From Escherichia phage vB_Eco_QOTSP: DNA of 64,000 nucleotides. The position numbers and the translations under genes were made by a program. This document shows positions 48,447 through 59,330 of this stretch, piece by piece (the stretch's first letter is position 1; each line of letters opens with the position of its first letter). The stretch lies in sequence record OY720014; one strand, written 5' to 3'. The notes under the pieces were generated by a model. It was not told the DNA's origin. It saw only the letters and a list, made by a program, of their open reading frames with translations, and made no database searches.

Positions 48447-48458
48447 TTTCACAAAGTT

Positions 48459-48488
48459 GTTTACATACTGATGAGGTAGTGATACTAT
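48459..48488 (+). promoter_or_regulatory. T4-type early promoter with stem-loop (PeSL-like cassette), copy 1
   Basis: GTTTACA -35, TACTAT -10 inside 9-bp inverted repeat GATGAGGTA/TACCTCATC. Confidence 0.6.
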
Positions 48489-48519
48489 TACCTCATCAAA
48501 ATTAATTAGGAAAATAAAA

Positions 48520-48777
48520 ATGAAAACTTTCAAAGAGTTTGCTACAGAAACTATTATCACTGAATCTTCTCATGGTATGGAAGTAAAGCTTGGAATGGCT
48601 TTAGCTGAAGCTGAGCGTCTTTTTTCTCGTATTAAAGAACTTGCTGCTGCAGTCGATCCTTCATCTTTTAAAGGAGACCAAACTAAAGTTAAAGCACTTT
48701 TAGCATTATGCTCTGATGCAGGAGAAATCGCTAAGAACGGTTCTAAGATGAAGAAACGATTAGAAGATTTAAAATAA
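48520..48777 (+). CDS. small protein with capsid-targeting-like N-terminus (MKTFKEFATE)
   Basis: 85 aa ORF with RBS, downstream of early promoter cassette. Confidence 0.6.
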   Translation: MKTFKEFATETIITESSHGMEVKLGMALAEAERLFSRIKELAAAVDPSSFKGDQTKVKALLALCSDAGEIAKNGSKMKKRLEDLK

Positions 48778-48789
48778 TTTCACAAAGTT

Positions 48790-48819
48790 GTTTACACGGG
48801 GTTTTAGTAGTGATACTAT
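48790..48819 (+). promoter_or_regulatory. early promoter/stem-loop cassette, copy 2
   Basis: Same 30-bp upstream block (GATTTAAAATAATTTCACAAAGTTGTTTACA) as copy 1. Confidence 0.6.
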
Positions 48820-48855
48820 TACCCTATCAAAACAAATGTGAAATTGGAGAATAAA

Positions 48856-49089
48856 ATGAAAACGTATCAAGAATTTATTGCTGAAGCTGCTGATGTAAAA
48901 GTTGAGTTTATTTACATTGGCAAGAAAGATAAAATGGGCGAAATGCCTCATGGAGTTCTTCGTGATGCATTAGATAATTTCGGTCAACTCGCCGCAGAAG
49001 ATTACGGTGATAAAATTGTTGTTACTGGTCCGGCTGCAGTTATTGAAAAATGGGCAGCAGAAAATAAATCAATTTTTCGTAAAAAATGA
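48856..49089 (+). CDS. ipI: internal protein I-like head protein (CTS MKTYQEFIAE)
   Basis: 77 aa from ATG with GGAG RBS; canonical T4 capsid targeting sequence; ipI locus position. Confidence 0.65.
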   Translation: MKTYQEFIAEAADVKVEFIYIGKKDKMGEMPHGVLRDALDNFGQLAAEDYGDKIVVTGPAAVIEKWAAENKSIFRKK

Positions 49090-49119
49090 GTTTACTTTTA
49101 GATAGGGTAGTGATACTAT
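49090..49119 (+). promoter_or_regulatory. early promoter/stem-loop cassette, copy 3
   Basis: GTTTAC ... GATAGGGTA-GTGATACTAT-TACCCTATC. Confidence 0.6.
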
Positions 49120-49147
49120 TACCCTATCAACTACTGAGGAGAATAAA

Positions 49148-49333
49148 ATGAAACGTTGTGAATTAATTCGAAATGTTGCTATTGCAATTTCTGCTTCCGC
49201 TTTTAGTTTTTCAATGTTTGTTGGATTTATATGCGGATTATTAACTACAGCAGAAAATGTGTTTTCACTTGTAGTAGCATTTTTAATTGGTTTAATTGCT
49301 ATCGTTATGGATAAAATTTCTAAAGGTGAATAA
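49148..49333 (+). CDS. small hydrophobic protein (61 aa, predicted membrane)
   Basis: GAGGAG RBS; two hydrophobic segments. Confidence 0.55.
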   Translation: MKRCELIRNVAIAISASAFSFSMFVGFICGLLTTAENVFSLVVAFLIGLIAIVMDKISKGE

Positions 49334-54240: not shown

Positions 54241-54504
54241 ATGGATAATTACGGCGAACTGTTCAACTTCTTTATGAAATGTGTTTCAGAAGATTTTGGT
54301 CGTACAGTGAATGATATTAAAGTTATCGGTCCTGATCATCCGATGTTTGAAACTTACGCAGTAATGGGTAATGAAGATGGTCAGTGGTATACTGTAAAGG
54401 TTGTGATTAACATGTTCACTGCTGAAGGTTATGTTAAACTGTCTTCTAAAGTTTACCATGATAACGATGAAATCGCAGAAGAATATTTCAATAATATGAA
54501 ATAA
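54241..54504 (+). CDS. hypothetical protein (87 aa)
   Basis: ATG with GGAGAA RBS (ORF track start 54229 is TTG). Confidence 0.6.
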   Translation: MDNYGELFNFFMKCVSEDFGRTVNDIKVIGPDHPMFETYAVMGNEDGQWYTVKVVINMFTAEGYVKLSSKVYHDNDEIAEEYFNNMK

Positions 54505-54545
54505 GTTTACACGGGCTCATGATTGAGATATTATGAGCCTATAAC
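54505..54545 (+). promoter_or_regulatory. early promoter with stem-loop (GGCTCAT...ATGAGCC)
   Basis: GTTTAC then 7-bp inverted repeat enclosing a -10-like TATTAT. Confidence 0.5.
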
Positions 54546-54560
54546 TTTGAGGAGAACATT

Positions 54561-54893
54561 ATGAAACGTAACTTTAGTAAAGCTTTTTGTAATAGAAATT
54601 ATTATCCTGAAGAGCTTTTTGAATCTAAGGACTTTAAAGAGTTTAACGAACGTTCTCAAAACATGCCTGTACAATGGGTGTTAGATTATGCCAAACGTAT
54701 CTTTGAAGGTGTACGTTGGTTCAGTCCTGATGATGAAGCCCCATATTTTCAAAGGGCATGGTCTATAGTCAATCAAGCTTATATTGATGCTTTAGAAAAT
54801 ATTAATATTATGGATGATGATGCTTTGTTAATCATCGATGAGTCTATTAATAGTAGTATCGATAAATTTATTGATGAATTGGACGAAGAATAA
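54561..54893 (+). CDS. hypothetical protein (110 aa)
   Basis: ORF with GAGGAG RBS. Confidence 0.6.
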   Translation: MKRNFSKAFCNRNYYPEELFESKDFKEFNERSQNMPVQWVLDYAKRIFEGVRWFSPDDEAPYFQRAWSIVNQAYIDALENINIMDDDALLIIDESINSSIDKFIDELDEE

Positions 54894-54968: not shown

Positions 54969-55562
54969 ATGAACATGCTGAAGAAAATTGTTGAGTTTAT
55001 TCGCACTAAACTTGGTTCTGCTATGGCTAAAAATCTATCTGTTGAAGAACAGTATACTGCTGCAGCAGCAAAACTACTTGATAAGATTAAAGATCTAAAA
55101 ACTGCTTCTGTTAAATCTATTAATGAAGAAAAACGTATTCGTGAACTTATTGTCGAAAAGAATCGACAGGCCGAATCAAAAGAGCGTGAAATTCGCAAGC
55201 TTCTTTCTGAAGGTCAAGATGTAACAATGCATGCTAAACTTGGTTTACTATATCGTCGAACAGCTGAGCAGTTGACTACTAAAGCTGATGGTTATGCTGA
55301 AATGCGAATTGAAATCGCCAAGAAAGTAGTTGAGTTAGATGATGCTCGCCAAGAACTTGCAGTTAAATTGGAATATATCCGTGAAACTCGCGCCGCGAAT
55401 GCCCTCGGAATTAGTACTGCTGATGATGTAGTTGAAATTGCAGCACTGACTAAGGTTGATATTGAAGATACTCTTGCTCGAGTTGAAACCTTTAATGGCA
55501 ATATTTCTGGGGTTGAAACTACCTCTGCCGATGTTCAGGAATACATTAATTCTCTGAAATAA
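54969..55562 (+). CDS. hypothetical alpha-helical coiled-coil protein (197 aa)
   Basis: ORF with RBS; followed by hairpin GGGGC-TTCG-GCCCC at 55569..55582. Confidence 0.6.
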
Positions 55563-55603
55563 TGATAAGGGGCTTCGGCCCCTATTACTTGGAGTAAGTA
55601 GGA

Positions 55604-56212
55604 ATGAAAATGCAAAGTGATTTCAATTCAATGTTTGAAGAGTTCCAAAGACAGGTTGATGTTCCAGACCAATTATTAAATGCTCTTAAACGTATGGCAG
55701 AAGGACGTAATTATTATTGGGGTTCTTCATATGAAACTGATGAAAGTCTTTCTAGAGGATTTTCTAGAGGTAAAAAGTCTTTAATACGTCCTGGAATACT
55801 TATTAACAGTATTGAATCAATTCATTTATTAACATGCGATTTTGACGTTGAATTTACTGATTTTGTTTCTCCTGAATGGACGGTCTGTTATTTAAACGAC
55901 GATTATGATTATCTTGGCGTTTATAGTTTAAGTGATGCATGGTTTAAACGTAATTTACAAAAGTCAAATTTATTTTATATTGATACTACGGTAAAATTTC
56001 AGGGAAAGAAATATTTCTTTACTCTTATAGTTGACTCTGAAACGAAACATGAAAATAAACGTATTCTTAGTAAAAAGAATATCTTAACTATTGTTGATGA
56101 TCTTTTTGATAAATTTGTGGAAAATCCCAATTTTGAAAGCGATTTATTACTAGAAAAATTTGTTAAGGAATGTAGAGAATATGTCAAAGCCATCACTATA
56201 CCTTCCAAGTAA
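55604..56212 (+). CDS. hypothetical protein (202 aa), C-terminal FVKECREY motif
   Basis: ORF; first member of the junction-motif family. Confidence 0.6.
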   Translation: MKMQSDFNSMFEEFQRQVDVPDQLLNALKRMAEGRNYYWGSSYETDESLSRGFSRGKKSLIRPGILINSIESIHLLTCDFDVEFTDFVSPEWTVCYLNDDYDYLGVYSLSDAWFKRNLQKSNLFYIDTTVKFQGKKYFFTLIVDSETKHENKRILSKKNILTIVDDLFDKFVENPNFESDLLLEKFVKECREYVKAITIPSK

Positions 56213-56573
56213 ACCGTTGAAGTATGAATTAAAGCGTCAGATAATTTCTACTGATGTGTTAATAGGTCCTGTGGTAGCCGTATCATTTGTGATTCTGCTG
56301 ATTGCTGGAATAGTTATAGACGTTATGACTGATATTGAATCTGGTGCAATATTTGGAGCAACACTAATTCTTCCATTGGTAGTTCCGCTTTTATTAGTAC
56401 CTATAAATTGGATAGGATATTGGTATCAAGGAAGACACTATCGTAAACGTGTACGTGATTGGAAAGCTCAGTGTAAAAAGATTAAAAAGGAACATCAGCT
56501 TAAACTTGCTGCGCATGAATTTGATGAAATTATGAAATTTGTTAAGGAATCACGATGCAAAAGCCAAAACTAA
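56181..56573 (+). CDS. small membrane protein (about 130 aa), C-terminal FVKESRCK motif
   Basis: Two predicted TM segments; start taken at ATG 56181 (ORF track start 56160 is upstream). Confidence 0.55.
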   Translation: MSKPSLYLPSKPLKYELKRQIISTDVLIGPVVAVSFVILLIAGIVIDVMTDIESGAIFGATLILPLVVPLLLVPINWIGYWYQGRHYRKRVRDWKAQCKKIKKEHQLKLAAHEFDEIMKFVKESRCKSQN

Positions 56574-56917
56574 ATAAAGTCAAATATTCTCTTCCTGAGT
56601 CATTTTTAATTTTTGCTGTAGCGTTGGCTGCAGCTCTTGCGGGTAGTCTTTTTGGATTGTTAATTGACTGTCTTATTTTAAACATTGACGGCACAGTAAA
56701 TATAATAGAAGTTTGGAGTGAACTTCACTATACTAAAATTATTTCATTATTTTCATTCTTTGGTACAATGTTATATTTTCATTATGATAATTTTAAAATA
56801 AATTGGCAAAGAAAAAAGGATTACAAAATACAATTAAAGGAATATAATAGCTACATGTCTTATATTGAAAAAGAATCAATGGAAGAGTTTGTGAGTGATT
56901 GTAGGAAAATTAAATGA
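56555..56917 (+). CDS. small membrane protein (120 aa), C-terminal FVSDCRKIK motif
   Basis: TM segments; RBS AAGGAA. Confidence 0.6.
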   Translation: MQKPKLNKVKYSLPESFLIFAVALAAALAGSLFGLLIDCLILNIDGTVNIIEVWSELHYTKIISLFSFFGTMLYFHYDNFKINWQRKKDYKIQLKEYNSYMSYIEKESMEEFVSDCRKIK

Positions 56918-57398
56918 TTTTAAAAACTCGCTGGTATGATTTAGATGATGGGGATGATGGCATTTCAGTTGATAGAGTTGACTGGAATGGTTGTTCCGAA
57001 GATATGAAAAATTTGTTGATTAGGGAGTTTAGAATGGGATATCAAGCAGCTAAGCCATCTATTATAACAGATGATAAATTCGTGTGTATTCATAATGGTC
57101 GTGCTAAGTTAACAAATGCTGATTGGTTTACAAATAAGATTATGATTCTGTGGTATATCATTAGTCTTCCTGTGTCATCATTTGTATTTTGCTTCTTTGG
57201 TGAAAGTCCAATAGGCAGAACAGGAGATTGGATTCTTTTAATTATGCTTGTTAATATTTTGACAGCAGCAATATTATCTGGGATATGGTACACGTTCATT
57301 GAAATGCCATGGCGGCTACGCAGACAACAAAAGATTTTTGATGAAAAGAAATACGCTCAAAATTTAAATAACTTTATCACTGAATGCAGGAAATTAAA

Positions 57399-57402
<4 letters not shown>
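56914..57402 (+). CDS. small membrane protein (162 aa), C-terminal FITECRKLK motif
   Basis: TM segments; ATGA overlap with previous gene. Confidence 0.6.
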
Positions 57403-58371
<969 letters not shown>

Positions 58372-58856: not shown

Positions 58857-59330
58857 ATGAAAACATATCAAGAATTTATCGCTGAAGCAGCTATTAATTC
58901 TCAAATTATTGCTGAATCTTTTACTGATCTTTTGAAATTTAAAAAAGGTCAAAAAATCACTGCTGTATTGGATGATGGTACAGAAGTTGAGATGGATGTA
59001 CAGGGATATAATTATGCAGTAGATGGAAAACTGTATAATAAATCTCATGCTAAATTTGATTCATTTGACGACTTTGTTAATACAGTTGAAGATGAAAAAA
59101 CTCGTAGATCCATTGCAACTGGTGATGCTAAGGTTCTTATGGCACATGGTCATGAACGCATTCGCGCTAAACAGAATAAAATGGGTGAAGATAATTTCGC
59201 ATTAGTTGGTTATCAATCTGGTAAACAAACTTATGGCTATCAACGTACTGCTACCATGTATAATAAAAATGGTAAAATTGCCTTTGTGAATAGTAAAGGT
59301 TCTATTCAGTACGTTAAATCGTTCAAATAA
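58857..59330 (+). CDS. internal protein-like head protein (CTS MKTYQEFIAEAA), 157 aa
   Basis: Canonical capsid targeting sequence; position near e as for T4 ipII/ipIII. Confidence 0.65.
   Translation: MKTYQEFIAEAAINSQIIAESFTDLLKFKKGQKITAVLDDGTEVEMDVQGYNYAVDGKLYNKSHAKFDSFDDFVNTVEDEKTRRSIATGDAKVLMAHGHERIRAKQNKMGEDNFALVGYQSGKQTYGYQRTATMYNKNGKIAFVNSKGSIQYVKSFK

Follow-up and report, generated by a model that had tools for sequence, protein, structure and literature searches.

Why do four consecutive genes of a T4-like phage, one of them coding for a soluble protein and three for predicted membrane proteins, end in nearly the same residues, and what does the DNA encoding these residues do? The question is raised by positions 55,604 to 57,402 of a 64,000-nucleotide stretch of Escherichia phage vB_Eco_QOTSP (record OY720014), the whole of which is called the window here. 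An earlier note, made from the letters alone, had described the four open reading frames (ORFs) at this locus as a tandem array with a common C-terminal and junction module. By sequence comparison, the window is identified as part of a Tequatrovirus (T4-like) genome and the four ORFs as the genes e.5, e.4, e.3 and e.2, which lie upstream of nudE. We consider it probable that, taken together, this T4-type block includes a pair of diverged paralogs (e.4 and e.3), that its repeated gene ends are dual-coded, specifying both a peptide and the start signals of the next gene, that crossovers between these ends lead to gene loss, and that the common tail serves for docking.

A shared C-terminal motif ends four consecutive genes

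Read up to the stop codon, the products of e.5, e.4, e.3 and e.2 end in ...FVKECREYVKAITIPSK, ...FVKESRCKSQN, ...FVSDCRKIK and ...FITECRKLK, respectively. Among the 127,996 six-frame codons of the 64-kb window, F[VI]x[ED][CS]R is found four times, once at each of these four ends. Since this pattern had been derived from the four products themselves, two further checks were carried out. A position-specific scoring matrix (PSSM) of 12 residues, built from 15 tails of six phage groups, was run over the window and over positions 1-72000 and 122000-168903 of T4. Only the e.5-e.2 genes scored between 23 and 31, the runner-up reaching 14.3, and the motif was absent from every other gene end of the window and of the T4 segments scanned, though ATGA overlaps are numerous there. 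The looser pattern [FW][VI]xxC[RK], searched in six loci from other genera (73,212 six-frame codons), gave 11 matches, 10 of which lie 1-11 residues before the stop codon of a real gene. These 10 belong to genes of the syntenic array, the bodies of which are in part without detectable similarity to one another. The six-frame counts, the PSSM scan and the scan of other genera rule out a chance origin, and the shared motif seen in the earlier note is real. Its consensus covers about 12 residues and reads hydrophobic-x-x-F-[IV]-x-[ED]-[CS]-R, usually with K as the next residue.

At the position of e.5, Jiaodavirus KP182 codes for a protein of 196 residues and Marfavirus VAC36 for one of 189 residues, with 24% identity between the two. 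In the KP182 protein, the match to e.5 is restricted to the tail (LIIDEFIKYCRERVQ versus LLLEKFVKECREYVK, 19 columns), and the VAC36 protein has a similar tail, EEFIKHCREAVNG. Further carriers are a 98-residue two-helix protein (AWIRSCRK before the stop) and a 102-residue soluble protein of KP182, a 94-residue soluble protein of VAC36 (RFIKYCRGKHVS before the stop) and the e.2 proteins of Dhakavirus (FIEECRK before the stop). To judge from these matches, the tail is a module that turns up repeatedly in this hyperplastic region, across six or more T4-like genera. The make-up of the array varies: ST2 carries e.5-e.4-e.3, Dhakavirus e.2 only, VR7 a short e.4 plus e.3, and the Klebsiella phages a different set. 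ST2, a 171-kb T4-like record (OM982647.1, locus L009) which we take to be a Mosigvirus, is filed under Guernseyvirinae; Kagunavirus, a taxonomy line that is probably wrong because the 171-kb genome has the T4-type order e.6, e.5, e.4, e.3.

Selection on the peptide and constraints of ribosome binding

A motif that overlaps the start signals of the next gene could owe its conservation to these signals. In this explanation, the AU-rich leader, the Shine-Dalgarno (SD) sequence UAAGGA or AGGA, the spacer and AUGA would make unrelated proteins converge on F-[IV]-K-E-x-R-K, a functionless by-product of nucleotide constraints. The codons of [IV]-K-E do read (A/G)TTAAGGA(A/G), an excellent SD sequence, which is found about 5-9 nucleotides from the next ATG at e.4/e.3 and at most junctions of ST2, VR7, KP182 and Dhakavirus; K plus the stop codon reads AAATGA, which contains the next start; the position of the motif in e.5 and e.4 tracks the next start rather than the gene's own stop; and the junction RNAs are mostly unstructured, as initiation regions should be. 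However, the codons that provide the SD sequence differ from junction to junction, being K-E or E-E at some and C-R-K at e.3/e.2 and e.2/nudE, and AAGGAA in e.5 lies 12 nucleotides from the ATG of e.4, probably too far to serve it well. The conserved Arg of the Cys-Arg pair is encoded by AGA, AGG, CGA, CGT or CGC, the last two of which add nothing to an SD sequence. Among eight Tequatrovirus sequences, the synonymous rate (dS) of the tails is 0.13-0.25, like that of the rest of the block, with a ratio of nonsynonymous to synonymous rates (dN/dS) of 0.08-0.11. Between orthologs from different genera, 42 of 72 residues (58%) are identical in the 9-residue tail, compared to 385 of 1084 (36%) elsewhere (Fisher P = 2e-4). 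The 102-residue protein of KP182, encoded downstream of nudE, keeps the ending LFIAKCRAK although the next gene begins 29 nucleotides farther on and has its own SD sequence. The absence of the motif from all other scanned gene ends, despite their many ATGA overlaps, speaks against nucleotide constraints in the same way, and we regard them as an unlikely sole cause.

Because the Arg codons vary, the tail dN/dS is about 0.1, the SD position shifts and the KP182 tail is kept, the motif is not simply imposed by the ribosome-binding site. It is probably set in part by that site, with the peptide itself under purifying selection. The earlier note had named similarity restricted to residues imposed by ribosome-binding nucleotides as what would refute it; conservation was found instead at the level of the peptide.

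The junctions form two related pairs

The observation that each 3' end embeds the SD sequence and start codon of the next gene was confirmed at the junctions. The overlaps are 32 nucleotides for e.5/e.4, 19 for e.4/e.3 and 4 for both e.3/e.2 and e.2/nudE, the last two being ATGA stop-start overlaps, and an SD sequence lies inside the upstream ORF about 4-7 nucleotides from each next start. The further proposal of one similar DNA block at every 3' end stood only in part. Junctions e.5/e.4 and e.4/e.3 have in common an exact 16-mer, AAATTTGTTAAGGAAT (56156-56171 and 56535-56550), followed by ATGnnAAAGCCAnnACTA, and junctions e.3/e.2 and e.2/nudE have in common a 25-nucleotide block of 72% identity (56889-56913 and 57374-57398). 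When the gene-start regions of the window were compared in 4005 pairs, these two pairs ranked 24th and 10th, respectively, whereas comparisons across the pairs were unremarkable, ranking from 149th to 1922nd, so that there are two junction pairs and not one DNA module. The four gene ends are united by the peptide, not by a common nucleotide module. A 19-nucleotide block of 79% identity, common to e.2 (56930-56948) and nudE (57414-57432), lies within the first ~35 nucleotides of both genes, at equal distance from their start codons and in different reading frames; the DNA similarity between junctions e.3/e.2 and e.2/nudE thus reaches into the downstream genes.

Early-promoter-like sites were found upstream of e.8, e.7 and e.6 (54169, 54506 and 54895). 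No credible early promoter was found between e.5 and nudE and nothing promoter-like at the four junctions, and the number of promoter-like sites over the region was at the level of shuffled sequence (25 found versus 20.3 ± 4.7 expected). The folds of the junction RNAs gave z = +0.7 to +1.2 at three junctions and -2.2 at e.3/e.2; neither a hairpin common to the four junctions nor an Rfam match for them was found. As three junctions fold like shuffled sequences, with no common hairpin and no Rfam family, RNA structure does not explain the motif. With no credible promoter inside it and a hairpin setting it off from e.6, the block e.5-e.4-e.3-e.2-nudE looks like one translationally linked unit, in which the translation of a cistron is most likely coupled to that of the one before it.

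A gene is lost at the repeated ends

Natural variants of the block were found in several records. The IMG/VR genome L008 is missing e.2, and its e.3 ends in FVIDCRKLK before the stop and runs directly into nudE. This ending combines the motif of e.3 with last codons of the e.2 type, pointing to a crossover within the repeat GA(T/A)TG(T/C)AGGAAA present in both tails. Likewise, e.3 abuts nudE in PP01, from which e.2 is absent. At a tblastn identity of at least 80%, e.2 was found in ~443 records compared to 489-502 for e.3, e.4 and e.5, so that about 1 in 10 Tequatrovirus records lacks e.2. This gene is truncated to 102 residues in the T4 reference and split into e.2a and e.2b in T4T (L014:17652-17960, L004:3501-3988); in the window and most relatives it is an intact ORF of 162 codons. 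In UFV05 (five contigs), e.3 is deleted and a 106-residue chimera, e.4(1-31)::e.2(88-162), is joined at the 7-nucleotide microhomology TCCTGTG, at equivalent positions of the first transmembrane helix (TM1), keeping the layout of two helices plus tail. An IMG/VR search with e.3 yielded four loci only; the exact junction pattern had five matches there, four in e.2/e.3 homologs and one probably due to chance. The e.5-e.2 genes are taken to be dispensable accessories, in line with the broken e.2 of the T4 records. Duplication or cassette shuffling through the junctions, as put forward in the earlier note, is thus borne out for loss at the junction repeats (the L008 crossover; PP01 without e.2), and the e.4/e.3 paralogs described below fit duplication; gain was never seen.

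Membrane topology, evolutionary rates and possible function

As had been predicted for the last three genes, the products of e.4, e.3 and e.2 each have two hydrophobic helices by hydropathy, and e.5 has no hydrophobic segment. The three proteins carry 4-11 lysines plus arginines in their N-terminal segments, 0-1 in the loops between the helices and 9-15 in their C-terminal tails, a distribution that places both termini in the cytoplasm (N-in/C-in). The dN/dS values of e.5 (0.08) and of the tails (0.08-0.11) are low enough to indicate real genes; those of the transmembrane hairpins are 0.41-0.64, with diversity (pi) reaching 0.26. Since the hairpins evolve fast and the tails slowly, we propose that the common tail may be a docking helix, binding one shared cytoplasmic partner or allowing these proteins to assemble with each other.

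A more specific function, superinfection exclusion or immunity, had also been suggested for e.4, e.3 and e.2, which would then act like T4 Imm or Sp. These proteins of the inner membrane are small and encoded in an early region, the parts in the membrane and the periplasm change quickly (pi up to 0.26, dN/dS 0.4-0.64), the genes are dispensable and variably present, and NCBIfam matched e.4 to the immunity family Bfi1, although below threshold (E = 0.069, 13 bits versus a cutoff of 100). Yet no similarity to T4 Imm or Sp was detected (hhalign P = 0.038-0.5), a PADLOC scan gave no match, the searchable literature gave no functional data, and the mass outside the membrane is mostly cytoplasmic, not periplasmic. 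We thus think it improbable that the three genes have such a role, and the suggestion found no support, the only immunity-related match being the sub-threshold one to Bfi1. T4 Imm and Sp are small early proteins acting at the envelope, Imm being a small, hydrophobic membrane protein. In size, timing and location e.2-e.4 resemble them; unlike e.2-e.4, Imm and Sp have neither the basic cytoplasmic tail nor the motif, and no sequence similarity was found. We know of no exclusion phenotype for e.2-e.4.

e.4 and e.3 as diverged paralogs

In Smith-Waterman alignments compared to shuffled sequences, e.4-e.3 gave z = 4.8, e.3-e.2 z = 3.6 and e.4-e.2 z = 1.6, whereas e.5 against each of the others remained at the level of shuffles (z = 0.3-0.7). 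For profile comparisons by hhalign, we built cross-genus profiles from the syntenic arrays of ST2, Dhakavirus MX01 and JS10, Gaprivervirus VR7, Jiaodavirus KP182 and Marfavirus VAC36. With these, e.4 matched e.3 over 42 columns, the whole cytoplasmic tail behind the second transmembrane helix (Prob 92%, P = 5.8e-7), and the N-termini of both also match (MxKPxL...KY). The match between e.3 and e.2 comprised the last 18 residues only (Prob 78%, P = 1.9e-5), that between e.4 and e.2 gave P = 0.007, and e.5 matched the others over 7-15 tail residues only, with P of about 1e-3 to 6e-2. As a control, these profiles were aligned with small T4 membrane or periplasmic proteins unrelated to them, six in number (Imm, Sp, RI, NrdC.7, PseT.3 and Ac), which gave P = 0.018-0.56. 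On these alignments, e.4 and e.3 are best read as diverged tandem paralogs, each predicted to be a small protein of the inner membrane with a basic, helical tail in the cytoplasm, e.2 appears to have the same tail and membrane-hairpin architecture as e.3 and e.4 behind an extra N-terminal domain, and e.5 would be an unrelated soluble protein, not a paralog of the other three. Of the paralog family claimed in the earlier note, the e.4/e.3 pair stands (P = 5.8e-7, z = 4.8), e.2 joins e.3 over ~18 residues, and e.5 drops out.

An exhaustive HMMER search with e.5 over 1.84e9 representatives returned 6 matches, none of them membrane proteins, revealing a tiny family with no distant relatives and no functional lead. 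That all four genes are whole-gene paralogs from serial tandem duplication of one ancestor is very improbable: the genes are adjacent with a tail in common, e.4 and e.3 are related in N-terminus, architecture and tail, and a PVxxSFV stretch in TM1, the site of the natural in-register fusion, is common to e.4 and e.2, but e.5 is soluble, at shuffle level and matched in its tail alone, its family of 6 holds no membrane protein, its KP182/VAC36 positional counterparts match it solely in the tail, and the N-terminal domain of e.2 has no counterpart in e.3 or e.4.

Identity of the genes and neighbouring features

Megablast of positions 55400-58000 matched 513 phage records, 506 of which were 90-99% identical in nucleotide sequence over this 2.6-kb block; nearly all of the 506 are Tequatrovirus from Escherichia, Shigella, Yersinia and Salmonella. 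The order e.5, e.4, e.3, e.2, nudE, e (lysozyme) is annotated in RB51, T4T, T4 and PP01, the record of PP01 itself being without e.2. The flanks of e.5-e.2 are nudE, e (lysozyme) and denV downstream and e.6, e.7 and e.8 upstream. The window genes are 80-100% identical to their T4 orthologs in protein sequence, keep the T4 order ahead of nudE and e, and are the same genes as those of T4, listed in databases as four separate families.

All four products have full-length matches in PHROGs, each in a separate family of unknown function: e.5 to phrog_2607 (E = 7.7e-109 over residues 1-202; 94% identity to T4 e.5), e.4 to phrog_2604 (E = 1.1e-69), e.3 to phrog_2330 (E = 2.2e-60) and e.2 to phrog_2203 (E = 1.6e-77). 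For e.3, 45 homologs bear the name e.3 and tblastn matched 630 records. The Pfam families given in Table 1 were found solely as precomputed labels, PF26876 on the UFV05 ortholog of e.5, PF26873 on all close homologs of e.4 and PF26896 on all homologs of e.2; our local Pfam-A scan gave no family for e.5, e.4 and e.3 and chance-level matches only for e.2, and an NCBIfam scan of the four products gave no supported match. The predicted layout of e.2 is a 75-residue cytoplasmic N-terminal domain with the signature WxxxDDGDxGI...DWxGC, two transmembrane helices and the tail; Dhakavirus orthologs, 32-43% identical, keep both the N-terminal domain and the tail. Homologs of e.3 and e.4 are labelled sulfurtransferase in some records (BW-1, Shinka and CT01; e.g. 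P0002, P0005, P0050 and P0058). No NCBIfam, Pfam or PHROG model stands behind this name, which looks like a propagated misannotation.

Table 1. Features of the e.5-nudE block in the window
Feature	Coordinates	Strand	Description
GC-rich hairpin GGGGC-UUCG-GCCCC	55568..55583	+	between the e.6 stop and the e.5 start
e.5	55604..56212	+	202 residues, soluble, ends LLLEKFVKECREYVKAITIPSK; T4 Y06P family, PF26876, phrog_2607
e.5 tail codons FVKECR	56159..56176	+	within the exact 16-nt repeat 56156-56171, just 5' of the e.4 ATG at 56181
e.4	56181..56573	+	130 residues, two-helix membrane protein (predicted), basic cytoplasmic tail ...FVKESRCKSQN; Y06O, PF26873, phrog_2604
e.4 tail codons FVKESR	56538..56555	+	AAGGAA (K-E) 5 nt 5' of the e.3 ATG at 56555
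e.3	56555..56917	+	120 residues, two-helix membrane protein (predicted), ends EEFVSDCRKIK; phrog_2330
e.3 tail FVSDCR + K-I-K	56888..56913	+	TGTAGGAAA gives AGGA SD 7 nt 5' of the e.2 ATG
e.2	56914..57402	+	162 residues; Y06M, PF26896, phrog_2203; ends FITECRKLK
e.2 tail FITECR + K-L-K	57373..57398	+	TGCAGGAAA gives AGGA 7 nt 5' of the nudE ATG
nudE (Nudix hydrolase)	57399..57839	+	PF00293, E = 6.5e-13; final cistron of the overlapping block

The start of nudE differs among records, T4 and T4T having the ATG at 57384 (151 residues) and RB51 and PP01 that at 57399 (146 residues). Only the latter has an SD sequence (AGGA 7 nucleotides upstream) and the ATGA overlap with e.2. On the upstream side, the tightly packed e.5-nudE block is bounded by the hairpin between e.6 and e.5; the fold of 55555-55634, which contains this hairpin, has z = -1.9. 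Upstream of the lysozyme gene e, positions 57840-57876 contain two late-promoter-like boxes, TATAAATA, and a strong SD sequence, TAGGAGGT; these elements mark the downstream end of the overlapping block.

Behind the e.4/e.3 array, ST2, VR7 and VAC36 carry 3-4 paralogs, small and soluble, that end in (G/A)WVSSSxxC before the stop (L009:3231-4025, L011:2984-3772 and L022:3510-4561, respectively), a second same-tail family of the same hyperplastic region that is absent from the window. Elsewhere in the window, the regions upstream of four genes (48450-48520, 48790-48856, 49080-49148 and 54495-54561) contain a repeated block, in the order GTTTACA, a stem-loop such as GGTAGTGATACTATTACC, an SD sequence and ATG. 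These blocks were the top-scoring pairs in the all-versus-all comparison of gene starts and look like T4 early promoters with an embedded stem-loop, of the kind of the PeSL (promoter-early stem-loop) cassettes discussed below. Four plus-strand genes (starts 48520, 48856, 53526 and 58857) begin with MK[TS][YF]x[QE]F, e.g. MKTYQEFIAEA. These starts resemble the N-terminal capsid-targeting sequence of T4 internal proteins, and for the gene at 58857 the homolog in RB51 bears the annotation Ip4.

Discussion

The reading that we find probable as a whole is as follows. The genes e.5 to nudE form a gap-free run of overlapping cistrons, in which the DNA of each gene end plays a dual role, encoding a selected peptide and providing the cistron that follows with its SD sequence, spacer and start codon. 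Such repeated ends act as short homology tracts for recombination; the one crossover observed from tail to tail removes a whole gene in frame and joins the upstream gene to the next start, and by this route genes might, in principle, also be gained or exchanged. At the protein level, the tail would bind the proteins to a common partner in the cytoplasm or to one another, and the variable parts in the membrane would be turned towards host or competitor targets that change.

Several points weigh against this reading or parts of it. Profiles made from Tequatrovirus sequences only (effective number of sequences, Neff, 1.2-1.8) gave only weak local matches in hhalign (P = 0.0013-0.039), and the stronger values come from cross-genus alignments that are small, with 5-7 sequences. 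What e.2 and e.5 have in common with the other genes is too short to tell common descent apart from capture of the tail or from convergence. Coupled translation is deduced solely from overlaps and SD positions. All observed events are gene losses, with no gain seen, and the UFV05 fusion occurred via microhomology within TM1, not at a junction repeat. AlphaFold2 models were unusable, the predicted local distance difference test (pLDDT) being 43 for e.5 as a single sequence and 48 for e.2 with a shallow alignment, and a test of tail amphipathicity was not significant.

The closest known counterpart of these repeated gene ends is formed by the PeSLs, cassettes for modular shuffling in the hyperplastic regions of T4-type phages (PMC2839356, Arbiol et al. 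2010; PMC4122927, Comeau et al. 2014). PeSLs are intergenic, consist of a sigma-70 early promoter and a stem-loop terminator or attenuator, end in an SD sequence and a start codon, and recombine to give insertions and deletions (PMC2839356, PMC4122927). The e.5-nudE junctions resemble them as short conserved repeats at gene boundaries of variable T4-like regions, with a 3' end made of an SD sequence and the downstream start, and in that a crossover between copies gives indels (L008). They differ in lying inside coding sequence and encoding a conserved peptide, so that crossover leaves in-frame hybrid proteins, and in having neither a sigma-70 early promoter nor a common stem-loop.

Cistrons with ATGA-type overlaps and an SD sequence in the upstream ORF are common in phage and bacterial operons. 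The overlaps of 4, 4, 19 and 32 nucleotides in e.5-nudE, with the SD sequence in the upstream ORF, are of this type; here, however, the SD codons belong to a peptide motif conserved across several genera and across bodies without detectable similarity, a trait that coupled junctions in general do not have, since it occurs at no other gene end that was scanned.

A bolder version of the docking proposal is that the tail, at ~12-15 residues, is a portable address tag, recruiting otherwise unrelated proteins to a common partner or complex. It would be carried by e.5, which is soluble, by the proteins found in its place in Klebsiella phages, by several membrane proteins with two helices and by small soluble proteins near nudE. 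As the DNA of the tag is repeated and includes the ribosome-binding site and start of the following gene, one crossover would then tag an acquired ORF in frame, couple its translation and bring its product into the complex at once, making the genes plug-and-play cassettes of a T4 hyperplastic region that operate on proteins as well as on DNA. We offer this version tentatively and consider it rather unlikely.

The genes themselves are long-annotated T4 ORFs and the array is not new. The searchable literature yielded nothing on the function of e.2-e.5, and neither it nor the annotations mention the shared tail or the junction; the repeated dual-coded gene-end module and its role in gene loss appear to be undescribed. 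The module marks the breakpoint of natural in-frame gene loss. If our reading is correct, junction-mediated shuffling of the PeSL type would extend from intergenic regulatory cassettes to coding sequence, which would explain the variable number of these small membrane proteins among closely related phages, and a peptide of ~12 residues would offer a concrete lead towards the partner of the T4 dark-matter genes next to nudE, and from there towards their function.

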